A stretch of 33,173 nt of DNA from Thermoproteota archaeon. GTDB taxonomy: Archaea; Thermoproteota; Thermoprotei_A; Sulfolobales; Ignisphaeraceae. The translations under genes and the position numbers were made by a program. The stretch spans positions 1 to 33,173 of the forward strand of contig JAUQPB010000006.1 in assembly GCA_030550585.1 (NCBI GenBank). The letters are read 5' to 3'. Position 1 is the stretch's first letter, and the number at the start of each line of letters is the position of its first letter. The notes below the pieces were generated by a model that was given only the letters and a program-made list of their open reading frames with translations, did no database searches and was not told the origin of the DNA. Shown here piece by piece: positions 1 through 16,062 of the stretch.

Positions 1-354
1 CACCACCAAACCTAGCCAAAGACAGAATTGCGAAAAAGATGACAAAACCAGTTATCCTTAATCAACATCACAGAACAGCACCAAAGAAAACCAAATTATT
101 AAACAAACTATGTAGAAACCACAACATCACCGATTCTCGGTAGCCACATAATCTTCACCATTACGATACCATTTAGCTTTCGGCAAATAGTTGATAAAAC
201 ATGAATACTTTACCTCCACTTTTTGTCTACATTTGTGACATAACAGTAGTTGGGATGCAAACCAGAAGATGTCGCGGTAAACATCACAATGAATCATAGA
301 ATAGAGCTGATAAAGTTTAACAGAGTCGCATTTTGAAGATATTCGTTCACGGTC

Positions 355-885
355 TTAGCTGTTAATAACATCGGCAACAATCTTTTCCAGATTGTACTTT
401 TTGACCATTTCCATGATGTCTCTGTAGGCGTTGTCAACTATATCATCGACTTTGTAGCCAAGTCTCTTGTACTCTAATCCTATTAGATATGTCGCTATGT
501 AGTTGCATAGCTTAGCTAACTTAGATTCAAAATCTTTTTGCTCTAGATATTCTCTAAACAACTTTTTAACCAATGGATTATCAACATGCTCTTCAATTAA
601 ATTCAGCTCCAACTCCATTTTCATAGCACCTACTCGAAGAGAAACCATCTTAACGATATCGCCAGTAAAAGCTTCACTAACATCATGTAGTAGAGAGTAT
701 AGAACAAGCTTGCCAATGTCAACACTCTTAATCTTACTGCCAATCTCTATGCATATGTATGCTGTTAGAAAACTGTGATCTGCAACAGACTCAGCAATGC
801 TGCTTGGAACACCCCTCAACATCCACCCACTTCTAACCAATGATATTAAAGCTCTTGCAATCTGTACTAGCCTATTCTTTGTCAT
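355..885 (-). CDS. HD-domain hydrolase, YfbR/HDDC2-like 5'-deoxynucleotidase family
   Basis: 176 aa with R-SGW, ESVADHSF and LLHDVSEAFTGDI motifs typical of YfbR/HDDC2; GGGGTGG RBS upstream. Confidence 0.85.
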   Translation of the reverse strand: MTKNRLVQIARALISLVRSGWMLRGVPSSIAESVADHSFLTAYICIEIGSKIKSVDIGKLVLYSLLHDVSEAFTGDIVKMVSLRVGAMKMELELNLIEEHVDNPLVKKLFREYLEQKDFESKLAKLCNYIATYLIGLEYKRLGYKVDDIVDNAYRDIMEMVKKYNLEKIVADVINS

Positions 886-1051
886 GGAACCACCCCATAC
901 TTAAGACAGTCACACACATTTTTAATATAGAGTTTATGACAGTTCTGCAAAGTCTAATAGATTTAGATGTGTGTCTTGAATTATGTCTGCGAGGCAAAGA
1001 CTGAATTAAAAAAGAGATTGTAATTAGGATTTACAAAAGATCGGCGTCGTG

Positions 1052-2287
1052 TCAAGCCCTTCCTCTCTTTAGTCTATACTCTTGATAGAAAAGAAATATT
1101 AGATATGTAGCTATAAATATTATGAATATTGCGTACGCTGCAATCCAGCCAATTACACCTGGTATGAAGATTCTTGGGTATTTAGTCAGGCTTTTGCTAA
1201 CAGTGTTGGCAAATATTGGATAGGCCAAAACCGTTGATATCAACCCTATTAGCGCTTTTAGATGGCCTTCGCCTACGCGCCATAGAATTCCTGATGCGCA
1301 ACCACCAACCATAGTGGCTCCAAATATGAATATCGCTCCTCCAATTACATTGGTTATGTAGACAGGCGAAACATTTATCGATATATCAGCCAAGCCCATG
1401 TATTTTAATGCATAAACACCTGTAGCCCCTGTGAGCATTGCTACAGCAATTCCCTTATGGATGTTGATTGCTCTTAGAGCCTCTGGCCCTCTAAGCAGAT
1501 CTCTGAATGCTGTTGCAAAGCAGAATCTCGCCCTCTGTAATATCATGCCCACAGTTACACCTATTAGCAATCCCCCAATCATGTGGCTTCCAATGTAGGC
1601 GTAATAGATAGATGCTAAAGCTATTATTATTAATGGTATAACTAACAATACATTATACTGGTTAGCTTCATGCTTTTTCTCATTGACAGAGCCTATTAAG
1701 AGATCAGCTTTCAGTTCTAGTCTAAACGTTTTCTCAGCTCTCCAAAGCACATATCTTTGTCCTAGATAGCCACCTACCAAAGCCCCTAACAGAAATGCAT
1801 ATCCGTGTAGACTCCAAGATGTTATAGCAGATAGAAAGCCTCCCCAATTGCATCCAAATGCCATTGAAACCCCCAATGCCATTAAAACACCTCCAATAAT
1901 ACTCTCAACAGCTCCTAGTCTATCTACTCCACGTAGACGAAATTCCTTAGACAGTATGGCAGCTATCATAGCACCTAAAATAAGCCCTATGTCACCAGCA
2001 CTTGTAGGCTCTAGAAGAGGCGGGGCTTTAGGTGTACCTGCTAGATCACCTAAGCCCACTAAGCTATATATGTGCTGACCCCAGTTTAGAAATCCCGTAT
2101 ATATAGTAAAAGGCTTTTTAACCCATACATATGATACAATGTTTATTAAACCTATTAAAATGCCTGCTACCACAACAGGCCAACCCTCTGGCCCGAAAAC
2201 CTTTCTAAAGTAGTTGCTCTCCAAATATTTCTTAAAGCTGTTAATGTCTTTGGTATCTGTCTTGCTATTTACAATGTGACTGGCCAT
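1052..2287 (-). CDS. yeeE: YeeE/YedE family sulfur-compound (thiosulfate-type) transporter
   Basis: 411 aa polytopic membrane protein with the three family Cys motifs (AFGCNWG, QRARFCF, GGCASG); GGTGG RBS. Confidence 0.9.
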   Translation of the reverse strand: MASHIVNSKTDTKDINSFKKYLESNYFRKVFGPEGWPVVVAGILIGLINIVSYVWVKKPFTIYTGFLNWGQHIYSLVGLGDLAGTPKAPPLLEPTSAGDIGLILGAMIAAILSKEFRLRGVDRLGAVESIIGGVLMALGVSMAFGCNWGGFLSAITSWSLHGYAFLLGALVGGYLGQRYVLWRAEKTFRLELKADLLIGSVNEKKHEANQYNVLLVIPLIIIALASIYYAYIGSHMIGGLLIGVTVGMILQRARFCFATAFRDLLRGPEALRAINIHKGIAVAMLTGATGVYALKYMGLADISINVSPVYITNVIGGAIFIFGATMVGGCASGILWRVGEGHLKALIGLISTVLAYPIFANTVSKSLTKYPRIFIPGVIGWIAAYAIFIIFIATYLIFLFYQEYRLKRGRA

Positions 2288-2296
2288 TATACCACC

Positions 2297-2311
2297 TATA
2301 ACATTGTTAAT
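2297..2311. promoter_or_regulatory. Candidate operator palindrome (core TAACA-T-TGTTA) abutting the yeeE RBS
   Basis: TATAACATTGTTAAT; near copy of the palindrome at 2414-2428, in the equivalent position before the divergent gene. Confidence 0.55.
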
Positions 2312-2396
2312 ATAGTAAGAATTGTTAGCGTAAATTAGGAATTATGCCTTTAACACAATTCCTCATATTTTTTGTATGTATTCAAATTCGTAATGC

Positions 2397-2428
2397 TTAT
2401 ATATTCACACATTTATAACACTGTTATA
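2397..2428 (+). promoter_or_regulatory. TATA-like box (TTATATA, 2397-2403) followed by operator palindrome TATAACA-C-TGTTATA (2414-2428)
   Basis: Perfect 7-1-7 inverted repeat over the expected transcription start, abutting the AGGTG RBS of tusA. Confidence 0.6.
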
Positions 2429-2438
2429 GGTGTTTTAC

Positions 2439-2693
2439 ATGGTGAGATTCGCGAAGATTGGCGACAATAAGTATGTGCTTGATGTCAAAGGGTTTGTATG
2501 CCCATATCCAGTCATATATACTAGAAAAGCTCTTTCACAAATCAATGCTGGCGATGTCTTAGAGGTTATAACTGACAATCCACCGTCTTGTGAGAATGTG
2601 CCAAAAGCTGTTGAAGCTGATGGTCACGAGGTATTAGGTGTTGAGAATATCGATAGAGGTGTTTGGAGAATAGTTATCAGGAAGAGGAGGTAG
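2439..2693 (+). CDS. TusA/SirA/YeeD family sulfur carrier protein
   Basis: LDVKGFVCPYP (CPxP) motif, GDVLEVITD; ATG 2439 preferred over GTG 2430 because of RBS spacing. Confidence 0.92.
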   Translation: MVRFAKIGDNKYVLDVKGFVCPYPVIYTRKALSQINAGDVLEVITDNPPSCENVPKAVEADGHEVLGVENIDRGVWRIVIRKRR

Positions 2694-2699
2694 TAGCTC

Positions 2700-4118
2700 A
2701 TGTTTGAAGAGATTATCAAGAGGGTTGAGTATTATAAGAAACTTGGCTTAAATCCACTTGCACTTGCCACTGGATGCGCTGTTAAAGTCGATCTTCTAAG
2801 AGTTGTTTACCCTGCTTTAAAGATTATTAGAGATGAACTCAAAAACTTTAAGTTTTTCATAGCGCCTAGAGAAGATGCTTTAGTTGTGCCTGGCTATGCC
2901 GATGAGATTTACAGGGCTATATACCCTCTTGGAGTTGATATCGATGTAGACAATAGTTTGAATAGATTGAATAGATATGGAAAGCTCTATTCTGTTACAG
3001 TTGTCCAAGTGTATCAGAGATATGCTGATTCTCCAGAGGGGTTTATCAACAAAATTCTACCTGTATATAGAGGCCTTGCCAAAAGTGGTTTAGAGATAGT
3101 AATTGGAAAGGGACACTCAATCATAACCCCGTTTCCAGAAGACGAGTTTTCACTTTTCGACTTAATACCTCCGCCAACTAGGCTAGAGGGCTTCACAGCT
3201 ATTAACAACGATACAATTCATATTATAGACCCATCTCAAGAGCCTGGAGACTTTAAGCAGGTTAGCGGGGCTTTGAGTAACTCACTTAATGACATATTTG
3301 CCTTAGGTGTGTACAGGGATCTGAGAATCGCACCTGTGGTAAACGCTCCTAGCGAAGAGCTTTTAGAAAAGCTGTTAAGGAATGTAGACCTATACTCAAA
3401 ACAATATGGTGTTAAGGTAGTTGATGTGACGCAACCGAAGAAAGGAAGATTGTTGATGGGGGCAACAGCTATAGGGTACACAGACAAGGCTCCACCACTA
3501 TTTGAGGACAAGGTTGGAAAGGGTATGAAGCTCATTATAACAAGGCCTATGGGGGAACTAGCACCACTAAATCTATACTTGTCTTGTATAATAGATGAGA
3601 GTCTTGTCAAAGATCTGGAGAGTCAAGGCATAGATGTGGGATATCTTGAGAAGATAAAGAATGAAGTTGTTGACCTCATATCCAAGCCCAATATAGATGC
3701 TGCAAAGGTTATATACAAGTATCTGCCGCCTAGCAAAGAGGAGTACAAACCAGGCGAGCACATAGCTGTTACAACAGATGTTACAGGGCCTGGCATACTT
3801 GTTGTGAAAGAACTTGCAGAAAGAACAAATACGAAGATAAGATTGTACACAGTACCCCTTCTATATCCAGAGATATCAGAGATAGCCACAAAGCTATATG
3901 TAATTCCAAACGCTACAAGCGGAACCAACGGACCATTCATAATTGTTGCACCTGATGAGATAGCTGAGGATGTGGTCAGAGACCTGAAGTCACTAGGACT
4001 AAAACCGGCTATAATAGGCGAGGTTGTCGATGTTGGCGAACCAGAGGTTGAAGCACCCAAATCGCTGGAGAGGTTTGTAGCTGATAGAAAGGTACTTGCG
4101 CAATTTAGATTGGTCTAG
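2700..4118 (+). CDS. SelD-like (selenophosphate synthetase-related) putative sulfur-metabolism protein, PurM superfamily
   Basis: N-terminal GCAVK (Cys26, Lys29; cf. SelD GCGCK), GKGHS, NSLNDIFALG, TDVTGPG, GTNGP; the Cys is TGC, not TGA. Confidence 0.88.
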   Translation: MFEEIIKRVEYYKKLGLNPLALATGCAVKVDLLRVVYPALKIIRDELKNFKFFIAPREDALVVPGYADEIYRAIYPLGVDIDVDNSLNRLNRYGKLYSVTVVQVYQRYADSPEGFINKILPVYRGLAKSGLEIVIGKGHSIITPFPEDEFSLFDLIPPPTRLEGFTAINNDTIHIIDPSQEPGDFKQVSGALSNSLNDIFALGVYRDLRIAPVVNAPSEELLEKLLRNVDLYSKQYGVKVVDVTQPKKGRLLMGATAIGYTDKAPPLFEDKVGKGMKLIITRPMGELAPLNLYLSCIIDESLVKDLESQGIDVGYLEKIKNEVVDLISKPNIDAAKVIYKYLPPSKEEYKPGEHIAVTTDVTGPGILVVKELAERTNTKIRLYTVPLLYPEISEIATKLYVIPNATSGTNGPFIIVAPDEIAEDVVRDLKSLGLKPAIIGEVVDVGEPEVEAPKSLERFVADRKVLAQFRLV

Positions 4119-4128
4119 GGGTAGGGAA

Positions 4129-4425
4129 GTGCTTAAAGCATCTTCTATTACTATTTGTGGAGAGGTTAAAGGTGTTGGATTTAGAAGATATGTTTGGAGA
4201 ATAGCAAAGACGCTTAACTTGAGAGGATTTGTAGAAAACATGCCTAATAGTAATTGTGTTAAGATATATGTTGAAGGCGCAGATAGCGAGATACGCGAGT
4301 TAGTGAATAGAATACTTCAGAATAGGGTGTACACTATTACTAATATAAATGTGGTAGACCATGAATATAGAGGATTGTACACGGATTTCACAATCGTAAA
4401 GTGTGTTGGTGAAGAAGAGGTTTAG
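4129..4425 (+). CDS. acyP: Acylphosphatase-family protein
   Basis: GEVKGVGFRRYV...LRGFVEN motif (canonical VQGVGFR...GWVRN); likely GTG start at 4129 just after the SelD-like stop. Confidence 0.85.
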   Translation: MLKASSITICGEVKGVGFRRYVWRIAKTLNLRGFVENMPNSNCVKIYVEGADSEIRELVNRILQNRVYTITNINVVDHEYRGLYTDFTIVKCVGEEEV

Positions 4426-4429
4426 ATAT

Positions 4430-4657
4430 GTGAAGGTGCTAGATTTCAGAGGTGAGGAATGTCCTCATCCACTAGTCAAGACCGTTAGAGAACTCTCTAA
4501 GGCGCGTAAAGGGGAAGAAATAATTGTATTGACAACATCAAAGCTATGTGTTGATATGATTAAAGAGTCTGTTGAGGCATTTAATATTGGAGAGATTAAT
4601 ATATGCGAAAAGAATGGGTACTATGAAATTAGGCTTAGAAAAACAGTTGAGTTTTAA
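4430..4657 (+). CDS. Second TusA/SirA family sulfur carrier protein
   Basis: VLDFRGEECPHP (CPxP) motif, GEEIIVLT; likely GTG start at 4430 with GAGG upstream. Confidence 0.85.
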   Translation: MKVLDFRGEECPHPLVKTVRELSKARKGEEIIVLTTSKLCVDMIKESVEAFNIGEINICEKNGYYEIRLRKTVEF

Positions 4658-4696
4658 GATATACAATAGCCATTATAGCCGATATAGTGATTTTGT

Positions 4697-5728
4697 ATGA
4701 GCATTAGGAAAGGTGTTGCAGATTTTATTGAAAGATACTCTAGACAGCTACTTGTTATTGGAATTGAAAAACAGTTAAAATTGTCTAGCTCTAGAATAGC
4801 CATTATAGGCTGTGGTGCTACAGGTAGTAGCGTGGCCGAGGCACTTGCTAGAGCTGGCGTTGGCTTTATTAGAATTGTTGATAGAGATGTTGTAGAGATG
4901 AACAATATTCATAGAACACATCTGTTTAAAGAAGAAGATGCCTTGAAGAGAATGCCAAAGGCTATTGCATGTAGAAAACATTTAAAGGAAATCAATAGTA
5001 ATGCTGAGGTTGAGGCCATTGTAGACGATGTAGATGCCGATAATATTCAAGATATTATCGGGGATGTGGATCTCGTTATAGACGGCACTGACAACATGGA
5101 CACGAGATATCTAATAAACGAGGCTTGTGTAAAACTTGGCAAGCCCTGGGTTATGATCGGTGTTGAGAGATGGTATGGGAATACAAAGCTTATTGTACCA
5201 GAGAAAACAGCTTGTTTAAAATGTTTCATTCCTAGAGCTAGGACAAGGGAAAATGTGTGTGAAATTCTTGGTGTAATGCCAATAGCTATAAATTTGACGG
5301 TATCTGTGGCACTATCTATCGCAATAAGATATCTAATTGAAAATGAGGTAGATGAGTATTTGTATATAGTTGATGCATATGAAGCAATAATTGAAAAAGC
5401 TTATGTGAGGAGGAACAGCTCTTGTCCTGTATGTATTCACAAACAATTTGATTTTCTGAGAAGAGAAAGAGAAAATGTAAAGATTTTATGTGGTGCAAAG
5501 GCGGTTAAAATAGTGCCTGAAAATCGCATAGAGCTAGATTTTGCAAAGTTAACCAATTCTAACATAGTTAAGAATTTGATGGTATTTGACGACAATGTGG
5601 CTTATGGTGTAGTAGACGGCTTTGAAGTGATGATTCTACGTAATGGAAAATTATTTGTGAAGGGGACAACAGATAAGAGCTGTGCCCTAGAACTATATAA
5701 GAAGATAGTGAATGGCGTTACCAAATGA
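4697..5728 (+). CDS. ThiF/MoeB family E1-like adenylyltransferase, long form with C-terminal extension
   Basis: RYSRQ, IGCGATG, DRDVVEMNNIHR, DGTDN, zinc motifs CLKC and CPVC, putative active-site Cys in ENVCEILG, C-terminal LCG segment. Confidence 0.9.
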   Translation: MSIRKGVADFIERYSRQLLVIGIEKQLKLSSSRIAIIGCGATGSSVAEALARAGVGFIRIVDRDVVEMNNIHRTHLFKEEDALKRMPKAIACRKHLKEINSNAEVEAIVDDVDADNIQDIIGDVDLVIDGTDNMDTRYLINEACVKLGKPWVMIGVERWYGNTKLIVPEKTACLKCFIPRARTRENVCEILGVMPIAINLTVSVALSIAIRYLIENEVDEYLYIVDAYEAIIEKAYVRRNSSCPVCIHKQFDFLRRERENVKILCGAKAVKIVPENRIELDFAKLTNSNIVKNLMVFDDNVAYGVVDGFEVMILRNGKLFVKGTTDKSCALELYKKIVNGVTK

Positions 5729-5789
5729 CTTTGTCTGTAAGGCTCTAATGCAACAGCACGCCACTAATGTTTTTCTTAATATTCGAAAG

Positions 5790-6764
5790 TCATACTGTTA
5801 CAATGCCTTGGATATAGTCCCACACTATCTTTGGGACTGCTCTACCCATCCATAAAACGTCTTGTTGTGATATTATAGTGCCTATTGCTATGGGTTCTAG
5901 TCCTATGCTTTTCAGCCTCTCCAGAACCTCTTCCTCGCATCCAGGCTTAGCTATTAGCAGAGGTATGTACTCTTCATTAGATGCTAGAACAGCTATCTGC
6001 AAATCTACACCAACTCTTTTTGAATATTCTATTGCTAGCGGGTGCAGCATTTTAGATGGGTCTTCATCTATGTACACACCAGCTTCGCTGACCTCACTTA
6101 GCTGCTGAAGTGTTTCTGCAAATGTGTCGCTTATGTCTATAGAGCCTTCTAGACATGATCTGCAATGCTCTATAACATCAACTATTTGTTTGCATGGCAT
6201 TGGCCTACAGCTGAATTTGCGTACCTCGTCGATGCTAGGCGTTCTCTTCTTGGCATACTCCATATACCCTATCAGAGATAGCCCTATTCTTCTAGGCAAT
6301 ATAATTTTGCTTAGTTCTCTAGCTCTTCTTGGGAGGGGCCTGTTGTTGCACTCTCCCAGAATGAAAACATCTATCCAGTCGTCGTAGCCTATATTCGTAT
6401 CTATATTCTCTATATAGCCTCCGAACACGTCGACAGCATCTTCAACCCCTTTAATGATATCCTCTACAAAATCAGAATTCTCAGGCTTAACACCAACTGA
6501 GATGGCGTATACATATGGTCTACACCCCTTTGCAATAACATCGCTAACAGCTCCCACAACCCCCCTAAAGCCAAAATCTCTATAGCTACACCAGGGGTAG
6601 AGGGCTCTAGAAGCTGCAAATCCATCAACCTTAACAACAAAATATCTTCCACCAACCTCTATAGCTCCTGCATCGTCAAACCATGTTAGAAGGGATCTGG
6701 GATGCCTCTTAACCTTTCTAGCCAATTTCTTGATAATTTCATCTAGTTTACCCACCTTACCCAC
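5790..6764 (-). CDS. thiL: Thiamine-monophosphate kinase ThiL (divergent PurM/AIR-synthase-related)
   Basis: DDAG, VKVDG, SDVIAKG, DISD and EEY motifs; directly downstream of thiM-thiE; real start may be GTG 6755. Confidence 0.75.
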   Translation of the reverse strand: MGKVGKLDEIIKKLARKVKRHPRSLLTWFDDAGAIEVGGRYFVVKVDGFAASRALYPWCSYRDFGFRGVVGAVSDVIAKGCRPYVYAISVGVKPENSDFVEDIIKGVEDAVDVFGGYIENIDTNIGYDDWIDVFILGECNNRPLPRRARELSKIILPRRIGLSLIGYMEYAKKRTPSIDEVRKFSCRPMPCKQIVDVIEHCRSCLEGSIDISDTFAETLQQLSEVSEAGVYIDEDPSKMLHPLAIEYSKRVGVDLQIAVLASNEEYIPLLIAKPGCEEEVLERLKSIGLEPIAIGTIISQQDVLWMGRAVPKIVWDYIQGIVTV

Positions 6765-7392
6765 CTGGTTTTAGTATTTCGTCTACAATTTTTCTAAGCT
6801 CTAGAGTAGCTCTATAAACATCTTCAGCGGCCATAACAGCTGATATAACGGCTACCCCTACGACACCTGTCCTAAGAACCTCTCTAACATTATCCCTGTT
6901 TATACCCCCTATGGCGACAACGGGTATGGACACAATCTCAACTATCTTCTTTAGACCCTCCAATCCAATGACTCTTGCATCTGGCTTCGATGGTGTTGGG
7001 TATACCGATCCAGCTCCTAGGAAATGGGCACCCTCTTTCTCAGCATTTAAAGCCTCTTCAACACTGTATACAGAAGCCCCGATAATTAGGTTTGGGGCTA
7101 TTTCACGGGCTATTCTAATAGGCATGTCCTCAGGGCCTAGCTGAACACCATCTGCGTTTGTAGCCAATGCAACGTCTATCCTATCATCGACAAAGTATAG
7201 AGCTCCATAATCTCTGGTCAGCCTCCTAACCCCCCTACCTATCTCCACCATTTCACGTGTAGACGACTCCTTTAATCTAAGCTGAATAGATGTTGCACCA
7301 CCTTTCAATGCCTCCTCAACAGATTTTACAACATCTGGCTTCAACTTTTTATCTGTTATAACAAGAAGTCTAAGTCTCTCAGCCAGTCTCAA
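6757..7392 (-). CDS. thiE: Thiamine-phosphate synthase
   Basis: IQLRLK, DDRIDVA, DGVQLGPED, GSVYPTPSK, PVVAIGGI, GVAVISA. Confidence 0.96.
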   Translation of the reverse strand: MRLAERLRLLVITDKKLKPDVVKSVEEALKGGATSIQLRLKESSTREMVEIGRGVRRLTRDYGALYFVDDRIDVALATNADGVQLGPEDMPIRIAREIAPNLIIGASVYSVEEALNAEKEGAHFLGAGSVYPTPSKPDARVIGLEGLKKIVEIVSIPVVAIGGINRDNVREVLRTGVVGVAVISAVMAAEDVYRATLELRKIVDEILKPGG

Positions 7393-8215
7393 TCTCTCTC
7401 ACCTCAACAACATTTCTAATAATATCTCCATCGATTCTATAGAGCCAATCATATAGCTTGACATGGAATGAACCTGGGTAGACAGCCTCTTCAGAAGCCT
7501 TGTATGAAACTGCTTTGAATGTGGCCAACCCAGCTATAGCAGCTTTTAGAGGATTTTCCACAGCCAGAAACGCTCCTATTAAAGCCGATACAATACACCC
7601 CAGACCAGTGACTCTATGAATCACATTTTCAAGGCTTTGAGACCCCACTTTGAGTCTCACCTCATAAACATTGGAACCATTGCTAACAAAATCTGTATAG
7701 CCCGTTAAGCCAACAACACAATTGAATTTCTTTGAGGCCTGTAAAACAGCTTCGGATGCAACATTCCTATCATATGAAGCTGCATCAACACCTCTAGTCT
7801 TGCCAAACTCTCCCAGCAGACCCAGGATCTCGCCAAAGTTGCCTTTAACAACACTTATACCACCACTCTCAAGCAATGTCAAGGCCACTCTAGTTCTAAA
7901 CCTGGTTGCGCCAGCCCCTACAGGATCTAGGACAACAGGCTTTTTATATATCTTTGCAAGCTGGACAGCTTTAAGCATAGAGTAGGCGAATTCTTCATCG
8001 ATAGTACCAATGTTTATCACAATAGCGTCTGCTGCAGGCACAAGATCATCTAGATCCTCAACACCATGGGACATTATCGGCGATGCTCCTAGAGCTAGGA
8101 GGGCGTTGGCAGTTGTGTTCATAACAACGAAATTAGTGATGTTGTGAACCAATGGCTTTTTGTTTCTAAGCCTGTCTATTGCATCTCCAACCCAATTCAG
8201 GTTGGCTATGCTCAT
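7379..8215 (-). CDS. thiM: Hydroxyethylthiazole kinase
   Basis: PLVHNITNFV...TANALLALGASPIM, INIGT, VLDPVGAGAT, KGNFGEI, VTGLGC, PGSF. Confidence 0.96.
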   Translation of the reverse strand: MSIANLNWVGDAIDRLRNKKPLVHNITNFVVMNTTANALLALGASPIMSHGVEDLDDLVPAADAIVINIGTIDEEFAYSMLKAVQLAKIYKKPVVLDPVGAGATRFRTRVALTLLESGGISVVKGNFGEILGLLGEFGKTRGVDAASYDRNVASEAVLQASKKFNCVVGLTGYTDFVSNGSNVYEVRLKVGSQSLENVIHRVTGLGCIVSALIGAFLAVENPLKAAIAGLATFKAVSYKASEEAVYPGSFHVKLYDWLYRIDGDIIRNVVEVREIETG

Positions 8216-8402
8216 AAAAACCCCATGATTTTTGTATCCAATGCTAAATAAATTTGTTATAAATGGTTGAATAAATAAGCTTTACTATTATAGATGCAAA
8301 GATACGGCTCTATAGCAAATTTTATGGAGATTTGTTGTAGAGGTTTATACTGCGTAAACATTTTTAACCTGCAATGCCATTAAATGGTATTTTGGGATAT
8401 CT

Positions 8403-8585
8403 ATGTCTGTGCATATAGATCCTGTATGTGGCATGATAGTCGATCCCGAGAAAGCCAAGTACAAGACTATCTACAGAGGCAAGGTCTACTATTTCTGTAG
8501 CAGACACTGCCTAAATGAGTTTGAGAAGAATCCAGAGTACTACATTACTCACGGACCTAAAGGCATGCCCCATGGCCAATCCTAG
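8403..8585 (+). CDS. YHS/TRASH-domain metal (copper) chaperone
   Basis: DPVCGM...YYFCSRHC...F..NPEYY; immediately upstream of a P1B ATPase. Confidence 0.9.
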   Translation: MSVHIDPVCGMIVDPEKAKYKTIYRGKVYYFCSRHCLNEFEKNPEYYITHGPKGMPHGQS

Positions 8586-8605
8586 CCTCTTGGGTGTCTA
8601 TAGCC

Positions 8606-11005
8606 ATGGCTGTTGTTAGAGAGAGACTTAGACTAATTGGTGTTGACTGTCCTAGCTGCGTATACTCGATTAACAGGGAGTTGGCGAAGCTCGGATGTGT
8701 AAGCAATTTCAGTGTAGATATATCCTCTGGCGAAGCTCTAATAGAATACGATGATTCTGGATGTAGTCTAGGCGATATATACAAGGCTGTTAGAGACTCT
8801 GGATACGATGTTGTTAAAGAGGTTGCAGTATTTTCTGTAGAGGATCTCGATGCCAATTTGGCTAGGGTTGTTGAGGAGAAGCTGAGTAGAGCTAGAGGGG
8901 TTTTCGAATGCAGAGCCTCTGTCTCTACATCCATGATCAAGGTGATCTACAATCCTCTGACCATAGCTCAGCAAGACGTAGAGAAAATTCTTCTTGGGCT
9001 TGGCATAGAGTTTGAGCATATATCAGAGGAAGCTAGGTCTGGGACTGGGGAAGGTGAACATAGGCTTCTTGTTAGAAGACTCACATCATTTGCCATAGGA
9101 CTCTCAGTTGTGCTTTTCGCTATCCTATCCGTGTTCACCGGTCTCCATATAGACAGCTATGTCTATTTCCTAGCAACAGCTTCTGTGATAATCATTATAC
9201 TGAGCCATGATATTATTTTCAGAGGCTATAAATCGTTGCTAAAGCTTGCGCCAACAATGGATTCTTTTGTGGCTCTCTCCTCGACAATATCATTTCTTTT
9301 TGGAGTTTTGTCTCTATCCAACACTATTTCCCTTGGCAATGAAATACCTGTGTCATCATTCTTCGAGGCTTCTGCAGGTGTTCTGGGTTTTGTTGGTCTG
9401 GGTCTCTATCTTGAAGAGAGGGTTAGGAGAAGGGCTTGGAGAGATGTTGAAGAGCATGTAAAGAGGCTTTACAGCAAAGCAAGGATAGTCTCCAACGAAA
9501 ATGTTGTTGAGGTTAACGCGGATAGGGTCCCTCTTGGAGCTATTGTAGAGATTAGAGCTGGAGAGATTGTGCCTGTAGATGGCGTCGTTGTCGAGGGGGA
9601 GGGATATGTCGATGAATCTAGTTTTACCGGAGAGCCAATGCCTATACACAAAAAGGCTTCGACAAGAGACCCCGTCTTAGCTGGAAGCAAGCTTGTATCT
9701 GGCTATCTAAGGGTTAGAGCAACGAGAGTGGGTAATGAGACAATTCTCTACAGAATAGTTGAGACTATTAGAGAAGCCCAATTCTACAAGCCTAGAATAG
9801 TTAGGCTTGCAGATAAGATAGTCGGATACTTTACCTGGGTTGTCATAGGCCTTGGCATCGCCACAGCGTTGTACTGGTCTATATACGTGGGAGATGTGTC
9901 AAAGGCCATACTCTTCGTTGCAGCAGTTTTTGCAACTGCATGCCCCTGTGGAATAGGAATCGCAATCCCAATGGCTGTTTCAATAGCTGTTCTAGCCACT
10001 GCAAGAAAAGGAATTGTAATTAGACGTGGAGATGTGTTTGACAGAGTTCTTGAAACCTCTGTTGTGCTATTCGACAAAACAGGGACTCTGACCATTGGCT
10101 CGCCAGCTGTGAAAGAAATTGTGTTTCTAGATGGAAATCCTGGTGCAGATGCTATACTCTCTTATGTGTGTAGCATAGAGTCTAGAAGCGAACATCCAAT
10201 AGCCAAAGCCATAGCGAATTACTGCAACGAGAAAGGCGTTGAGCTAAGACAAGTTGAAGAATTTGAGCATTTCCCAGGGCTTGGGGTTGTGGGCAGGGTC
10301 AATGGCATTACTGTGGCTATGGGAAATGCTGAGCTTATGGATAGAATGGGCATTGAGTTGTCGAATAACATTGAAAAGCTTTTAAAAGAAATTGGTGAAA
10401 GAGGTGGAACACCAGTTATAGTGGCAGTAGAGGGGAGACCTGTTGCAGTTATAGAGATTTCCGATAGCCTCAGACCGGAAGCCGCCAAAGTGGTCAGTTA
10501 TTTGAAGAGTCTGGGTCTGAGAATCGGTATTGCCAGTGGCGATGTTCAAGAAGCTGTTAAACATTATGCAGAGATGCTCAAGATAGACTTTTACTACTAC
10601 AAGCTCAAACCCCTTGATAAAGTAGATGTTGTTAAGAAGCTTCAGTTGAATGGAGAAAAAGTTCTCTATGTAGGCGATGGAATAAATGATGCAGCTGCAA
10701 TTTCAGCCGCAAATATCGGTGTAGCTATGGGTAGTGGAGCCGACATCTCTAAGGAGGCTGGAGATGTGATTATAACAAGCAACAGGCTAACAGATATAGT
10801 CTTCCTGATAGAGTTTAGCAAAAAGGTTAGAAGAAAATTCCTTGAAAACATCTTCTGGGCACTTATATACAACACGATATTGCTTCCAATAGCAGCTGGA
10901 GCGCTCTATAGCTACGGCATCTTCATAAAGCCAGAGCTAGGAGCTGTAGCAATGGTTTTAAGTGATGCCAGCGTAGTGCTAAACTCACTAAGACTCTTAA
11001 AGTAG
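8606..11005 (+). CDS. copA: Heavy-metal P1B-type ATPase, Cu(I)-exporting CopA type
   Basis: N-terminal HMA CPSC, TGEP, transmembrane CPC, DKTGT, SEHP, GDGIND, YN and MxxS signatures; ATG 8606 has a GGTG RBS (ORF open from 8594). Confidence 0.93.
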   Translation: MAVVRERLRLIGVDCPSCVYSINRELAKLGCVSNFSVDISSGEALIEYDDSGCSLGDIYKAVRDSGYDVVKEVAVFSVEDLDANLARVVEEKLSRARGVFECRASVSTSMIKVIYNPLTIAQQDVEKILLGLGIEFEHISEEARSGTGEGEHRLLVRRLTSFAIGLSVVLFAILSVFTGLHIDSYVYFLATASVIIIILSHDIIFRGYKSLLKLAPTMDSFVALSSTISFLFGVLSLSNTISLGNEIPVSSFFEASAGVLGFVGLGLYLEERVRRRAWRDVEEHVKRLYSKARIVSNENVVEVNADRVPLGAIVEIRAGEIVPVDGVVVEGEGYVDESSFTGEPMPIHKKASTRDPVLAGSKLVSGYLRVRATRVGNETILYRIVETIREAQFYKPRIVRLADKIVGYFTWVVIGLGIATALYWSIYVGDVSKAILFVAAVFATACPCGIGIAIPMAVSIAVLATARKGIVIRRGDVFDRVLETSVVLFDKTGTLTIGSPAVKEIVFLDGNPGADAILSYVCSIESRSEHPIAKAIANYCNEKGVELRQVEEFEHFPGLGVVGRVNGITVAMGNAELMDRMGIELSNNIEKLLKEIGERGGTPVIVAVEGRPVAVIEISDSLRPEAAKVVSYLKSLGLRIGIASGDVQEAVKHYAEMLKIDFYYYKLKPLDKVDVVKKLQLNGEKVLYVGDGINDAAAISAANIGVAMGSGADISKEAGDVIITSNRLTDIVFLIEFSKKVRRKFLENIFWALIYNTILLPIAAGALYSYGIFIKPELGAVAMVLSDASVVLNSLRLLK

Positions 11006-11136
11006 AGCTTAATCATAGTCTCTCAATCATTATCTCATAAAATTGTCAGGGTGTTCGCAAGAGATGTCGAAGATTGGAGGTCAGGAATGGTGGACAAAAC
11101 AACTATCTTGTTAGAGAGAAATAGCATACGGAGTGC

Positions 11137-11390
11137 ATGAAAATGATCACAAAGAGGAGGGTTAGGCTAGTAGTGGCGATAGATAGGAGCAAATGTGTGT
11201 GAAGGCGTGTTTAACAGGGGTCCTCGCTCTAGTAAATGGGAAGGCTAATGTGATGGATTTGGCTCTTGTGTAGCAGCTTGTCGATACAATGCGATCGCGC
11301 TTGTCATGAGAGAAGCAGAAGAGTTTGACCAGAGCATTTTATCATCAGTTTCTCTAGCTGATTGGCTAAAAAAGTTTAGGGTAACAGCAA
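11137..11390 (+). pseudogene. Disrupted 2x[4Fe-4S] ferredoxin-like gene
   Basis: Three consecutive frames read MKMITKRRVRLVVAIDRSKC / CVKACLTGVLALVNGKANV / CDGFGSCVAACRYNAIALVMREAEEFD; breaks near 11196 and 11249; 3' end approximate. Confidence 0.75.
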
Positions 11391-11475
11391 AAAGCGTGAC
11401 AGCGCTATGTATCTGTTATCTATTCACTAACGCCATATATGTTTTCAGATCAATGGGAGTGCTTTGCTTAGTGCT

Positions 11476-12669
11476 TTATTCTGGCTCTGCTTTCAACCTT
11501 TTTGAAAGTTCTTTTGCTAAACCTCTTAAATTCTCTATATCTTCCTTGGAAGGCGTCACATTAATTTTTACCATTCCTATAAGCTCTGCCTTAAGATCTC
11601 TCGCTATTTCTTGTAATTGTCTTTCTGCTTGTGTACCCCAAGCATATAGAACTATTAGTGCTAGGTACTTTGCAGGGGGTTTCAGTATTTTAGCTAGATA
11701 AGCCGCTAGTGCTGCTAGTGGATGTGCATTTAGCACAACTGTTGGTGTTGCTAATACAATTGCACGAGAGTCTACAAGATCTTTCGCTACATCGCCTAAA
11801 TCTGCTACCGCTAAATTATGTAGAACAACATCTATTCCTTCGGCTCTAAGATCATCAGCAAATGTTTTGACGATGTTTTCAGTGTAGCCCCACATTGATA
11901 CATATAGTACAACAGCTTTCCTCTTTGTTCTTCCCTCTACCCAGCTATAATAACTCTCAATGATTTTCCTCGGATTTCTGTATATGGGTCCATGAGAAGG
12001 GGCAATAACTCTTATATCAAGACCAGCTATTTTCTTCAATGCATTCAAAGCATTAACTCTAAAGGGCATCATTATTTCTCCAAAGTACCTTTGTGCGTGG
12101 TATATCAAATCCTCTACCTCATCATCCCACAGACCCTGGGCTATGTGAGCCCCAAAGAAATCACATGTGAATAGTATCTTATTCTCTTCTAAGTACGTAA
12201 ACATTGTTTCTGGCCAGTGAAGCATGGGAGCCTCTATGAACTTTAGGGTCTTACCTCCCAGATCTATTGTATCGCCGTCCCTAACAACATATACTCTATC
12301 ATTTGGAACACCATAGAAGATCTTGGCCATCTTAGCTCCCACAGCCGTTGTCACAAGCTTTGCCTTGGGAGAGATTCTGAGTATATGTGGAATAGCCCCA
12401 GCATGATCTGGCTCAGCATGATTCATAACAACGTAATCTATATCTGATGGTTTAACAACAGAAGAAATTCTTTCCTCCAACTCACTCTCAAATCCAGGAT
12501 TGACGGTGTCTATCAACACAATCTTTTCCTTACCAACAACAAGATATGAGTTATATGATGTACCCTTAGGCAGAGGTATGATGGAATCGAAGATTCTTCT
12601 ACTAATGTCTCTTGCCCCAACCCACCAAACGCCATCATCTATCAGAACGGCTCTAGCCATCTGGTACAC
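11476..12669 (-). CDS. fprA: Flavodiiron protein (FprA / A-type flavoprotein; O2 or NO reductase)
   Basis: GTSYNSYL, NHAEPDH, HWPE, TCDFFGAH, PSHG and flavodoxin loop YVSMWGYT. Confidence 0.95.
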   Translation of the reverse strand: MYQMARAVLIDDGVWWVGARDISRRIFDSIIPLPKGTSYNSYLVVGKEKIVLIDTVNPGFESELEERISSVVKPSDIDYVVMNHAEPDHAGAIPHILRISPKAKLVTTAVGAKMAKIFYGVPNDRVYVVRDGDTIDLGGKTLKFIEAPMLHWPETMFTYLEENKILFTCDFFGAHIAQGLWDDEVEDLIYHAQRYFGEIMMPFRVNALNALKKIAGLDIRVIAPSHGPIYRNPRKIIESYYSWVEGRTKRKAVVLYVSMWGYTENIVKTFADDLRAEGIDVVLHNLAVADLGDVAKDLVDSRAIVLATPTVVLNAHPLAALAAYLAKILKPPAKYLALIVLYAWGTQAERQLQEIARDLKAELIGMVKINVTPSKEDIENLRGLAKELSKRLKAEPE

Positions 12670-12802
12670 CCTTTACATAGTTTCGTGTTATTCTTTACCA
12701 CCTTTTAAATCTGAATGTTGTAACACTGTTTTGTTTTGTTGTTCCAGATTGTTATGAAGGCAAAACATAAAAGTGTTTTTGTAGAGATAGACAATATGGG
12801 AG

Positions 12803-13363
12803 ATGAATTTGAGGTCTATAGAGCTCCTCATGAATGACCATAGAGTTATAGAGAAGGCCTTGCAGTTGCTTGAAAATTCGGTAATTAAATTACAGCAAGG
12901 GAAAAATGTTGATAGAAAAGTCTTTGAAACCTTAATCACATTCTTCAAACTATTTGCTGATAGGTGTCACCATGGAAAAGAGGAGAGCGCCTTCTTCCCG
13001 ACATTAGAAAGATTGGGAATTCCAAAAGAGGGCGGCCCTATAGGCGTTATGCTATATGAGCATGATATGGGCAGAAGGTATATAAAAAATCTTGAGGATA
13101 GCATAGAAAAATTCTATTCAGGCGATGCTAGTGCTCTACAAGATATTGTAGAAAATGCCTATGGCTACATCAACCTTCTGAGAAATCACATTTTCAAAGA
13201 AGATAACATTCTATTCCAACTAGCAACACAGGTACTAGATTATGACACAGATAGAGAGTTAGTTGAAGAATTTGAGAGAATAGAAGAGGAAAGAATAGGC
13301 CATGGAAAACATGAAGAACTAATTAGAAGCATAAACGATTTAGAATCTATTCTAATACGGTAA
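12803..13363 (+). CDS. Hemerythrin-like (HHE) cation-binding protein
   Basis: LMNDH, ADRCHHGKEE..FFP, GGPIGVMLYEH, HIFKEDNILF. Confidence 0.92.
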   Translation: MNLRSIELLMNDHRVIEKALQLLENSVIKLQQGKNVDRKVFETLITFFKLFADRCHHGKEESAFFPTLERLGIPKEGGPIGVMLYEHDMGRRYIKNLEDSIEKFYSGDASALQDIVENAYGYINLLRNHIFKEDNILFQLATQVLDYDTDRELVEEFERIEEERIGHGKHEELIRSINDLESILIR

Positions 13364-13575
13364 AGTGTTGAAAAAGACTCGATTTTTTGTAGCTGGGCGG
13401 GTTAAATGAAATAGCCATGTTTTGTAAAGAAGGTAGCGTTGTGTAAGGTAACAGCATTTTAGCATTCCTCTCTACTTTATTGTTACAATATTTATAATTT
13501 AAGTAGACCTAGCCTTGACAACACATTTTCGAGACGTATTAGGATTGACATCTCTTTCTGCCCAACTTTGTATAG

Positions 13576-14313
13576 CTAGAGACCGCAACAACTAAAATCG
13601 ACATGGAGATCCAGATCTCCAAAAACAATGTTTTTTAAATATGGGTCTAGATAGATGTTGATTGACTTGAATTTAACCCCATTTTCTAATGCATTTTCAA
13701 TGCTTTTGCAGATATCTTTATCTATGTGACAGTTGAGTCTAAACCCCTTTGCGTTTGGTATGCCAGCAACGAAAACCACATATGCATCTCTGTCTCCACC
13801 TGAAACAAATTTTGCTAGTGCTTCGATGTGTTTTCTTCCTCTAGGTGTTGGTGCATCGGGGTACCCAGTGAAGTTGTCGGGAAACCTCATAACAGCGCTC
13901 TTGAGCTCAACTAGAGTGGTTTTGTTTCTGCATTCCAATTCATAGTCTATTCTAGAGCTGTGTAGAGGATAGCCTCTTCTAATCAATGCACAGTTTCTTA
14001 GCCATGGGATAGCATCTCTGGCCACAAGTTCTTCAAAGGATTTCTCATGGAGCCTGGTGTCAACTAGAGCTGCATACCCATTGTCTTCTACGCCAACAAG
14101 TCTGTATCTAGCTCTACCCCTCTCTAAAGGTATGCAAAAACCTTTTCTGCCTCTAGCCAAGTAGCCTTCAAGCCTACCTGTATTGTTTAGATAAGCTACT
14201 GCCTCAGCACCGCCAATATCTACAACCACAGTAAATCTAGATATCCTCTCAACAATGCAACACTCCAACAAATCTCTAAGCGTTATAAGGTTCTGGGAAA
14301 TGGTCTTCACCAC
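13576..14313 (-). CDS. sfsA: SfsA family DNA/RNA nuclease
   Basis: ERISRF, NNTGRL, SRIDY, VELKS, YPDAPTPRGRKHIEAL. Confidence 0.9.
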   Translation of the reverse strand: MVKTISQNLITLRDLLECCIVERISRFTVVVDIGGAEAVAYLNNTGRLEGYLARGRKGFCIPLERGRARYRLVGVEDNGYAALVDTRLHEKSFEELVARDAIPWLRNCALIRRGYPLHSSRIDYELECRNKTTLVELKSAVMRFPDNFTGYPDAPTPRGRKHIEALAKFVSGGDRDAYVVFVAGIPNAKGFRLNCHIDKDICKSIENALENGVKFKSINIYLDPYLKNIVFGDLDLHVDFSCCGL

Positions 14314-14407
14314 ATACTAGCTGAAACTGGTGTCAGATTAAATATGCAAGAATTGACAGACTTCTATTTACTAGTTTTATTAGGTTTAAAAAAAGATTTT
14401 ATTTTGT

Positions 14408-14966
14408 TTAGAATCCAACATATCTATTTTTCGGTGCTCCGCAAACAGGGCATTTCTCTGGCGGTTCTGCACCAATTATTGTATGGCCGCATACTGGGCA
14501 TATCCAAATCTTTTCCTCGGGTTTTAGTGGAAGGTCTTGCCCTTTATCCACATATTCCTTGGCCTGTTTATAAAGTGATGCATGTATTTGTTCTGCCTGG
14601 TACGCATAGGAAAAGCTTTTCTCAGCCTCTGCCTCTCCTTGGTATCTTGCAATCTCTAGAAACACTGGATACATTTCCTTGACCTCATACTCTTCTCCGG
14701 CTATGGCAAGCTCAAGATTCTTACTCGTGTTGCCGGGTCCTATGGGGGTTCCTGAATAGACTTTTGCATCTTCTTTATAGTCTCTCAACACTCTATAGTG
14801 GTTAGATGCATGGACTTGCTCAGCATATGCTATAGCTTTGAAGAGTCTCGAAACATTTTTGAAACCTTCTCTCTGCGATATCAGCAAATATGAGATATCT
14901 CATATGGGCCATGGACTCCCCTGCAAAAGCCGATAGAAGCGCATCTTTTGTCATTGATCTAACCAT
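14408..14966 (-). pseudogene. rbr: Rubrerythrin with an apparent 2-nt frameshift (pseudogene or sequencing error)
   Basis: ATG 14966 gives MVRSMTKDALLSAFAGESMAHMRYLIFADIAER; the other frame continues REGFKNVSRLFKAIAYAEQVHA...EQIH...CPVCGH...CPVCG; shift at GCAGAGAGAAGG, about 14866-14877. Confidence 0.88.
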
Positions 14967-14998
14967 TTTTTCACCCAGTAGACCATTCAAGAAGATCT

Positions 14999-15031
14999 CA
15001 TATAAAGTTTTCTATTATGAAAGTTTTCTAT
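14999..15031 (-). promoter_or_regulatory. rbr promoter: BRE-TATA (AGAAAACTTTATAT) with an upstream 12-bp direct repeat
   Basis: AAAGTTTTCTAT at 15004-15015 and 15020-15031 on the + strand; GGGTGA RBS at 14971-14976. Confidence 0.55.
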
Positions 15032-15057
15032 ACTTGTATTTTGCTTTACAACATCCG

Positions 15058-16062
15058 CTACCTGTGTTCACCACCTTTTCTCAGACTTAGGATATAGTGG
15101 TAGACAGAGTCTGCCGCAAGAGCCCCCTCAGCTGCTGCAACAACTATTTGCTCGAATCTCTTTTTGCACGGCCCTCCAGCAACATCGCCTGCCGCGAAAA
15201 CCCCTGGCAGGTTTGTGCTCATATCTGGTTTTACAGCTATGTAGCCCTTTTCATCGAGCTCCAGTCCAATCTTCTTCAAAATGTTTACTGGGGGCTCTGA
15301 CCCAATTTCGATGAATACTCCGTCTATGGGTAGAATCCTCTCCTCACCGCTAACAACGTTTCTGATCTTCGCAGCCTCAACCCTGTCTTTCCCGATTATC
15401 TCAACAACTACTGTATTTAGAAGAAGCTCTATTTTTGGCTCATTCAAAACCTTTTCTACATAGGCTTGGAAGACCCTGAACCTATCTCTTCTATGGATGA
15501 TATAGACCTTTTTAGCATAGGATGCAAGGTGGATAGCGCTAGATAATGCAGAGTCTCCGCCACCAACAACAGCAACAACCTTGTCTTTAAAGAATGGAGC
15601 GTCGCAAACAGCGCAGTAGGAAACCCCTTTTCCGACCAGCCTATCCTCTCCAGGAACACCAAGCTTTCTTTTCTCACATCCAATAGCAATTATAACGGCA
15701 TAGCCGCAAAAGACATCTCCATTAACAGTTTCAACACACCATAGGTCTCCCTCTCTCCTAAGATTATCCATTGGATTCCCAGCAACAATATCAACACCAA
15801 ACTTGCGCACATGAGCCTCAAAAAGACTTGCAAGCCTACTTCCAGGAACCTCAGGAACACCAGGATAGTCATCAACCAGCGGGGCTATAGCCATCTTCCC
15901 CCCAATATCCTTGGTAACAACAACAGTCTTTAAACCAAATCTAGCCAGGTAAATGGCTGCTGTTAGCCCAGCAGGGCCAGCCCCAACAACAACACAGTCA
16001 TATATCTCCCTCCCAGCTCTTTTTCTAGGAAAAGCCAATCTAAATGAGGTTCCCACAGACAT
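15058..16062 (-). CDS. trxB: Thioredoxin reductase
   Basis: GAGPAG, GVSYCAVCD, VVGGGDSA, IHRRD, GVFAAGD. Confidence 0.95.
   Translation of the reverse strand: MSVGTSFRLAFPRKRAGREIYDCVVVGAGPAGLTAAIYLARFGLKTVVVTKDIGGKMAIAPLVDDYPGVPEVPGSRLASLFEAHVRKFGVDIVAGNPMDNLRREGDLWCVETVNGDVFCGYAVIIAIGCEKRKLGVPGEDRLVGKGVSYCAVCDAPFFKDKVVAVVGGGDSALSSAIHLASYAKKVYIIHRRDRFRVFQAYVEKVLNEPKIELLLNTVVVEIIGKDRVEAAKIRNVVSGEERILPIDGVFIEIGSEPPVNILKKIGLELDEKGYIAVKPDMSTNLPGVFAAGDVAGGPCKKRFEQIVVAAAEGALAADSVYHYILSLRKGGEHR

Follow-up and report, generated by a model that had tools for sequence, protein, structure and literature searches.

Is thiophosphate, the sulfur counterpart of selenophosphate, made by living cells as an activated donor of sulfur? 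The question has been open since 2014, and it is raised again by a locus in a 33,173-nucleotide (nt) stretch of DNA from a hot-spring Thermoproteota archaeon of an Ignisphaera-like lineage (contig JAUQPB010000006.1, positions 1–33,173, assembly GCA_030550585.1; hereafter the window). In this locus, a gene for a SelD-like, putatively ATP-dependent enzyme stands among genes for a YeeE-family permease, two TusA-family sulfur carriers (TusA1 and TusA2), an acylphosphatase and a long-form ThiF/MoeB-type E1 enzyme. An interpretation made from the letters alone, here called the sequence-only reading, joined all six genes into a single pathway. We instead divide the locus into a SelD-like sulfur module and a separate, IscS-fed relay of TusA2 and ThiF placed alongside it, a division to which we give about an even chance of being right. 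The locus is a real, ordinary member of a known family and does not represent a new kind of system.

That family was described in Sulfolobales and Thermoproteales by Li et al. (2014, BMC Genomics, PMC4210487), who reported its fusion to acylphosphatase in Thermoproteales, its SirA-like and DsrE-like ('Prx-like') neighbours, the lack of a SelD-like gene in the order Desulfurococcales and the absence of the family from bacteria. The same paper already proposed that SelD-like enzymes synthesise thiophosphate, so the core of the sequence-only interpretation is a published hypothesis. Its statement that the family had been predicted computationally, without biochemistry, agrees with PMC4210487 and with the literature searched here, in which we found no biochemical study of any member; a 2026 review still rates the function as speculative. 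The words YedE, YeeE, TusA, ThiF and MoeB are absent from the main text of PMC4210487; its supplementary figures may show such neighbours. Relative to that main text, what is new is the permease link, the dedicated clade of CPYP TusA proteins, the docking model, and the placing of TusA2 and a long ThiF next to the module.

The SelD-like enzyme and its recurring partners

The enzyme matches the family model NF038049 (SelD_rel_HyperS, 'SelD-related putative sulfur metabolism protein') with 593.1 bits against a cut-off of 250, residues 4–470 aligning with positions 2–464 of the 465 in the model, and a search of the genome with this model recovered it at 592.7 bits. It falls below the equivalog cut-offs for SelD itself (30.7 vs. 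125 bits for TIGR00476 and 44.2 vs. 291 for PRK14105), whereas two true SelD proteins scanned from the same phylum exceed both, with 226–232 and 330–336 bits, respectively. True SelD, carrying HGCSCK, was seen in one family of this phylum (f20; loci L119–L122 and L124, in genomes G258, G234, G396, G077 and G300).

Kinship to SelD is visible by fold and by profile–profile comparison only. The best structural matches of the AlphaFold2 model, which has a predicted local distance difference test score (pLDDT) of 91, are SelD/SPS1 (E 2.7e-16), then HypE (5.8e-13), ThiL and PurM. When solved structures were searched by sequence, the family profile gave no match and the single protein gave two at chance level. 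An hhalign comparison with an alignment of true SelD from the same phylum returned a probability of 97% over residues 183–451 and paired N194, D198 and D360 with SelD N86, D90 and D240. Read as motifs, GC26xxK29, RED59 and NND171T would correspond to the SelD loop and to the first two Asp residues of SelD. C26, K29, D59, D171, N194, D198 and D360 are invariant in all 65 full-length members compared (three truncated or split copies among 68 were excluded), and the Cys-x-x-Lys loop with its Cys, singled out by the sequence-only reading, is thereby present in every one of them. A family-specific insertion of ~100 residues (roughly 60–165) carries an invariant GKGHSI, and K137, H139, S140 and I141 are likewise unchanged in 65 of 65 members.

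Which proteins accompany this enzyme was surveyed in 68 loci, namely the window and 67 public loci with flanks of up to 10 kilobases (kb), whose open reading frames (ORFs) were classified both by unbiased clustering and by jackhmmer with the window proteins as seeds. In 55 loci there is a TusA gene within 3 kb, and in 38 one lies directly upstream of the SelD-like gene. An acylphosphatase is present in 48, as a separate gene in 31 and fused to the SelD-like enzyme in 17, and a YeeE gene is found at 22, where it is colinear and directly upstream of TusA1 in 14, divergent as in the window in five, and elsewhere in three. Thermoproteaceae-type loci combine TusA1 with the fused enzyme, and loci of the Ignisphaera, Pyrodictiaceae and Acidilobaceae types contain YeeE, TusA1, the SelD-like enzyme and the acylphosphatase. 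These four, all included in the sequence-only reading, form a module that recurs across lineages. Less frequent neighbours are a DsrE-like gene (12 loci) and a HIT-family gene (seven loci). In the Caldisphaera group (seven loci; L047–L049, L096 and relatives), the HIT-family gene (e.g., L047:11926–12399) is immediately adjacent to the genes for the SelD-like enzyme, acylphosphatase and TusA; nucleoside phosphorothioates and adenylyl-sulfate are substrates of some HIT enzymes, which could bear on P–S chemistry.

TusA1 and TusA2 both belong to PF01206 (84.9 and 55.3 bits, respectively) and carry the CPxP cysteine, and neither reaches the equivalog cut-offs for TusA, YeeD or YedF. The CPYP form of the motif is present in all 38 TusAs that lie directly upstream of a SelD-like gene, and 37 of the 38 fall into one clade (support 98/94). 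Modelled together, the SelD-like enzyme and TusA1 gave a predicted complex with a score of 0.87 (0.86, 0.88 and 0.87 in three runs), against 0.01 for the best of three controls; the runs shared at least 81% of contacts, and the partner had a pLDDT of at least 88. Of the solved complexes, 58 of 80 reach the docking mark, as against two of 110 mismatched pairs; the calibration is approximate, the alignments having been self-supplied. On the TusA1 side, the predicted interface comprises residues 20–26 (the Cys24-Pro-Tyr loop) and 49–52; on the SelD-like side, it comprises residues 18–31 (around Cys26 and Lys29), 106–114 and 142–145 (in the insertion), 291–302 and 398–403. The model lends support to putative binding of TusA1 and a putative direct Cys-to-Cys hand-over to the SelD-like enzyme. 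We know of no solved SelD–TusA complex; a parallel is provided by the true SelD genes of G396 and G077, which have a TusA directly upstream.

The permease, the sole YeeE-family copy in the genome, matches PF04143 at 140.7 bits and lies under the cut-offs of all four NCBIfam models (117 vs. 350 for YedE/FdhT, 103 vs. 400 for TsuA, and 83 vs. 645 and 46 vs. 200 for the others). It is a family member whose substrate cannot be assigned from these scores.

Could the module then handle selenium? In this alternative, the SelD-like enzyme makes selenophosphate, served by a YedE-like permease and a YedF/SirA-like carrier, for an unrecognised use or for detoxification. It would fit the selenium-linked NCBIfam models that the permease and TusA1 match best (YedE/FdhT and YedF, respectively), the retention of all SelD catalytic residues, and a gene trio that mirrors the bacterial YedE/SirA-like/SelD neighbourhood described by Lin et al. 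(2015, PMC5322559). Those two matches, however, lie far under their cut-offs (65.6 vs. 79 bits for TusA1), the enzyme fails the SelD models, and true SelD forms a separate family in the same phylum. No known trait of selenium utilisation is apparent in the window genome, whose completeness is 99.9%. A whole-genome search gave no match for SelU, SepSecS or YqeC (PSTK, YqeB and the Sen genes for selenoneine were not searched), only 21-bit matches for SelA and only general GTPases, below the cut-off, for SelB. ARAGORN called no tRNA-Sec among 39 tRNAs, a count from which intron-containing tRNAs are probably missing. The only match to RF01852 above the cut-off (48.1 bits) was rejected as a tRNA-Sec, as ARAGORN calls it tRNA-Ser with anticodon tga. 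The lack of selA, selB, selU and tRNA-Sec, which the sequence-only reading had noted for the window, thus extends to the genome. We consider a selenium function unlikely.

The acylphosphatase (PF00708, 66.4 bits) contains the motifs GEVKGVGFR and GFVEN. Its phosphate-loop Arg and Asn, which we take to be catalytic as in other acylphosphatases, are retained in all 48 SelD-like-linked copies, separate or fused. The window copy is 44% identical over 66 amino acids (aa) to a domain at G000:C7:315921–316115 that is presumed to be the N-terminal domain of HypF and lies near a HypE-like gene (C7:319931–320782), and it matches the HypF model TIGR00143 (4.3e-13); its identity to the other acylphosphatase (G000:C4:397336–397575), presumably the housekeeping copy, is 28%. 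HypF and HypE are a known partnership of an acylphosphatase domain with a PurM-fold enzyme, and HypE is the second-best structural match of the SelD-like enzyme, the HypE–HypF complex 3vti being among the structural matches listed for it. These likenesses are what recommend a HypF/HypE-like chemistry, in which the acylphosphatase cleaves an acyl phosphate such as carbamoyl phosphate and, in an ATP-dependent step, the PurM-fold enzyme activates or dehydrates a group on the TusA Cys, yielding a thiocarbamate- or thiocyanate-type product in place of thiophosphate. Yet SelD ranks above HypE by both structure and profile (the HypE model scores 29.7 vs. a cut-off of 251.6), the N-terminal Cys-x-x-Lys loop is a SelD signature, and the C-terminus, FRLV, lacks the HypE-type terminal Cys. 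Nor does a YrdC-like or Kae1-like carbamoyltransferase domain occur with the acylphosphatase, which here is a protein of 98–109 aa on its own and elsewhere stands alone or is fused only to the SelD-like enzyme. We hold this chemistry to be improbable, and both it and the selenium alternative are weaker than the single-pathway explanation weighed below.

In its distribution, the family is wider than published. Of the 401 Thermoproteota genomes sampled, 52 have a protein that exceeds the NF038049 cut-off, and the nearest relatives of the window enzyme, at 65–68% identity, are in metagenome-assembled genomes (MAGs) labelled Ignisphaera. Among 1.84 billion representatives, a profile search found 171 relatives, of which 88 have E values of 1e-30 or lower, and full-length distant relatives (P0011–P0114, 95–390 bits) retain CGCxxK and GKGHS. 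Among ten relatives looked up, the single named one comes from a Bdellovibrionales MAG; a high-GC, acidic group among the distant relatives gives the impression of being haloarchaeal. A metagenome scan provided three loci of distant bacterial-type relatives, and the one among these whose flanks were usable (L136) has neither a TusA nor an acylphosphatase nearby (n = 1).

The second TusA and the long ThiF

TusA2 has a different set of relatives. In the Ignisphaera-type loci L034, L035 and L036, the genes for IscU, an 82-aa protein, IscS, TusA and a 105-aa protein form a cassette 2.7–7 kb from the module, and the isc cassette of the window genome (C6:1540–3877) has no TusA. TusA2 is 58% identical to the TusA that stands between IscS and the 105-aa gene in L035, and the tree makes it the sister of the IscS-linked TusA from L036. 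Given this identity, the tree position and the TusA-less cassette, TusA2 would be an IscS-partner TusA relocated beside the long ThiF. A 'second TusA' clade (34 rows, support 99/94) brings together TusAs downstream of the module, IscS-linked TusAs and ThiF-linked TusAs. For the output arm in which the sequence-only reading had placed TusA2, the survey therefore gives a divided answer: a second TusA does follow the module in 19 of the 68 loci, but in this lineage it is the orthologue of the IscS-adjacent protein.

Two side observations concern these small proteins. Neither the 82-aa nor the 105-aa protein of the isc cassette has a Pfam family; a paralogue of the 82-aa gene lies on contig C4. 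Several downstream TusAs (L057, L058, L059, L061 and L063) end in GG plus one residue, and the long ThiFs of L038 and L111 end in GG; these termini may recall the Gly-Gly of E1 substrates, or they may be a coincidence.

The E1 itself (PF00899, 207 bits) has conserved G38, G40, G43, C173, C176, C188, C243 and C246. Its E1 domain resembles the E. coli ThiF structure 1zud (E 1.6e-23, 30% identity), with 1jw9 as a further fold match, and the protein is below all equivalog cut-offs (best PRK12475, 224 vs. 510; adenyl_thiF, 196 vs. 275). The genome has one other ThiF gene, a short one, which suggests that the window copy is a specialised paralogue. The length comes from a C-terminal domain (residues 261–342; window 5480–5725); across 13 long forms, its Cys265-Gly266, the two CxxC pairs and C188 are invariant. 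This domain has no Pfam family and no PDB match in Foldseek, which matched the E1 domain only, and an Atlas search found it on other long ThiFs and on stand-alone proteins of 87–120 aa from archaea and bacteria, with a weak TBP-like hint in 11% of one cluster. The window contains no gene for a ubiquitin-like, ThiS- or MoaD-type carrier, and the ThiS-family matches of the genome are on contig C4 only.

Do TusA2 and ThiF receive the sulfur of the module? In the single-pathway explanation, imported sulfur passes to TusA1 and on to the SelD-like enzyme, whose product, thiophosphate, is then relayed by the acylphosphatase, TusA2 and ThiF to a cofactor or tRNA. In a variant, the E1 adenylates the C-terminus of a carrier, thiophosphate attacks the acyl-adenylate, and the acylphosphatase turns the resulting acyl-thiophosphate into a thiocarboxylate. 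Such a pathway would account for the tight, same-strand genes of the window and the repetition of their order in an independent assembly, for a ThiF that is a second, non-housekeeping E1, for the presence at this one locus of the only two TusA genes in the genome, and for the second TusA that follows the module elsewhere. A long ThiF, moreover, adjoins the module in three arrangements: in the window; in L036, after YeeE and on the opposite strand; and in L038, where a ThiF–TusA pair lies convergent ~1 kb downstream.

Conservation, the check set beforehand for this output arm, goes against ThiF. A ThiF gene is found within 10 kb in four of the 68 loci, three of them with the long form, and it lies on the operon strand in the window only. 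The C-terminal domain of the long ThiF was detected in 35 of the 401 genomes, and it occurs in four of the 52 genomes with a SelD-like gene, where ~4.5 would be expected by chance; with this query, 48 of the 52 have no long ThiF, and 31 of the 35 have no SelD-like gene. Where both are present in G205, G355 and G278, they are on different contigs or ~100 kb apart, and in G373 and G319, two genomes of the same taxonomic order, a long ThiF adjoins a TusA without a SelD-like gene. The orthology of TusA2 with IscS-linked TusAs and the lack of a ubiquitin-like carrier gene in the window also speak against one pathway, and a TATA-like stretch in the 39-nt gap before ThiF may give this gene its own transcript. 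We judge the single pathway to be unlikely.

The most far-reaching form of the idea, which we regard as a long shot, is that this would be the first biological thiophosphate system, in which an ATP-dependent sulfur kinase receives sulfane sulfur of environmental origin from a CPYP TusA and, in this lineage, is wired to the long ThiF with its Cys-bearing C-terminal domain, for the making of protein thiocarboxylates through an acyl-thiophosphate resolved by the acylphosphatase. If true, thio-cofactors and thiolated tRNA could be made without passing through cysteine desulfurase.

The two-unit reading weighed

We return to the division into two units. YeeE, TusA1, the SelD-like enzyme and the acylphosphatase would form an archaeal sulfur counterpart of the bacterial YedE/SirA-like/SelD module, and the whole locus may operate as follows:

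(i) The permease would import inorganic sulfur species, with thiosulfate as the model, and the imported sulfur would be carried on Cys24 of TusA1.

(ii) TusA1 is predicted to dock on the SelD-like enzyme with Cys24 facing the mobile Cys26-x-x-Lys29 loop. Using SelD-type ATP chemistry, the enzyme would then convert the sulfur into thiophosphate or into an enzyme- or carrier-bound phosphorylated persulfide.

(iii) The acylphosphatase may hydrolyse a phosphoryl intermediate or the product. In a simple option, it would close the pathway by hydrolysing the phosphorylated sulfur species.

(iv) TusA2 and the long ThiF would make up the second unit, a relay from IscS through TusA to an E1 that thiocarboxylates some carrier. 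This unit would have evolved separately and come to adjoin the first in the window genome and in two relatives; sulfur might also flow between the two.

The idea of thiophosphate gains plausibility from the recurring module, the SelD catalytic residues that are kept, and the lack of any known selenium trait. Of the systems already known, the closest is the family of PMC4210487 itself, which shares the NF038049 match, the Cys-x-x-Lys loop and Asp/Asn residues, the links to SirA/TusA-like proteins and acylphosphatase, and the thiophosphate hypothesis; the window copy differs in coming from an Ignisphaera-like lineage, its nearest relatives being 65–68% identical. Bacterial SelD in its YedE/SirA-like (YedF) neighbourhood (PMC5322559) has in common with our module the PurM fold, the Cys-x-x-Lys loop, the ATP-site Asp/Asn residues and the trio of a permease, a small Cys carrier and a kinase. 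Compared with SelD, the SelD-like enzyme has the ~100-residue GKGHSI insertion, fails the equivalog models, is always accompanied by acylphosphatase where the module is intact, and is found without a selenium trait. In thiosulfate uptake by YeeE (TsuA) and YeeD (TsuB), the carrier Cys is modified by thiosulfate, according to Ikei et al. (2024, PMC11073785); there too, a YeeE-family permease adjoins a TusA-family protein with a CPxP cysteine, but the window proteins are far under the TsuA/TsuB cut-offs, and only here do an ATP-dependent enzyme and an acylphosphatase join them.

The second unit has its own precedents. The IscS–TusA sulfur relay and thiocarboxylation by the E1 enzymes ThiF, MoeB and Uba4 are known from E. 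coli and eukaryotes. TusA2 is orthologous to a TusA that lies beside IscS and IscU in relatives, and the E1 domain resembles those of E. coli ThiF and MoeB, Zn-binding Cys pairs and loop Cys included. The window E1 differs in having the Cys-Gly C-terminal domain in place of a rhodanese and in lacking an adjacent gene for a ThiS/MoaD-type carrier.

Several points weigh against this division and against the thiophosphate chemistry in its first unit. The product is a guess by analogy, since there is no biochemistry for any family member, and we know of no precedent for an acylphosphatase acting with thiophosphate. In NCBIfam, the permease and TusA1 come closest to selenium-linked models (YedE and YedF, respectively), though below the cut-offs. 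The N-terminal 180 residues of the SelD-like enzyme are unaligned to SelD in hhalign, so that the equivalence of D59 and D171 rests on motif reading. Partner conservation is incomplete: the Caldisphaera group has no upstream TusA; in Sulfolobaceae, the SelD-like gene stands alone and the best genomic TusA reaches only ~60 bits against the TusA1 profile; and some genomes without a SelD-like gene encode TusA1-like proteins at 100–119 bits. No conserved enzyme that could accept thiophosphate was found in the neighbourhoods of the 68 loci. The family was not found in three genus-mates of the window genome, which makes it accessory. Finally, the presence of ThiF beside the module in three arrangements within one clade hints at some functional tie between the units.

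For the question of 2014, the analysis names the CPYP TusA as the dedicated substrate carrier and offers a confident docking model that would bring both reactive cysteines together. To judge from its conserved residues, the acylphosphatase appears catalytically intact in every linked copy, and a YeeE-family permease is tied to a third of the loci. Setting TusA2 and ThiF apart leaves TusA1, the SelD-like enzyme and the acylphosphatase as the minimal set; left in, the two would mislead the design of a reconstitution.

Gene layout and neighbouring genes

The six ORFs of the sequence-only reading are present where it had placed them, and Pfam and NCBIfam uphold the family of each (Table 1). As longest ORFs, the SelD-like and acylphosphatase genes overlap by 23 nt, and so do the acylphosphatase and TusA2 genes. 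In-frame GTG codons at 4129 (acylphosphatase) and 4430 (TusA2) are probably the true starts, since they fit where the Pfam matches and the relatives begin. With these starts, the gaps in the operon are 6, 10, 4 and 39 nt from TusA1 to ThiF, in line with the tight spacing described earlier. The true start of TusA1 is probably ATG 2439.

Table 1. Positions of the genes and the divergent intergenic region within the window.
Feature	Position	Strand	Family match or remark
YeeE/YedE-family sulfur permease, 411 aa	1052–2287	−	PF04143, 1e-40; divergent from the operon
Intergenic region between divergent YeeE and TusA1	2288–2429		A/T-rich; TATA-like stretches toward both genes
TusA1, CPYP-type sulfur carrier	2430–2693	+	PF01206, 3.4e-24
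SelD-like, putatively ATP-dependent enzyme, 472 aa	2700–4118	+	NF038049, 593 bits
Acylphosphatase	4096–4425	+	PF00708, 2.9e-18
TusA2, CPHP	4403–4657	+	PF01206, 6.1e-15
Long-form ThiF/MoeB-type E1, 343 aa	4697–5728	+	PF00899, 2.6e-61

The gene order does not stem from an assembly error: window 1–8631 is spanned, with 12 base differences, by a single 24.7-kb contig that an independent hot-spring study produced, and short contigs from two further runs bridge the TusA2/ThiF junction. In the divergent region, 'cttatatatt' lies ~30–40 nt ahead of the TusA1 start and 'taatatag' ~25–30 nt ahead of the YeeE start; both look TATA-like, so one would face each gene. In the same region (window 2360–2378), the independent assembly (run X3) has an 18-nt insertion after 2360 that repeats the next 18 nt, a tandem-duplication polymorphism within the divergent promoter region.

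Downstream of ThiF, and convergent to it, are thiL, thiE and thiM. ThiF was considered as a member of this thiamine cluster, but the genome has Thi4 without a real ThiG and the long ThiFs of relatives are not beside thiamine genes, so the idea was rejected. With a Thi4 thiazole route, the neighbouring thiamine genes are probably coincidental. Further along, window 8403–16062 contains a metal/oxidative-stress gene cluster with a YHS-domain protein and a CopA-type P-type ATPase, a flavodiiron-type protein (ODP and flavodoxin), hemerythrin, rubrerythrin and a thioredoxin-reductase-like flavoprotein. Of these, hemerythrin and the flavoprotein are syntenic with the SelD-like module in Ignisphaera relatives as well.

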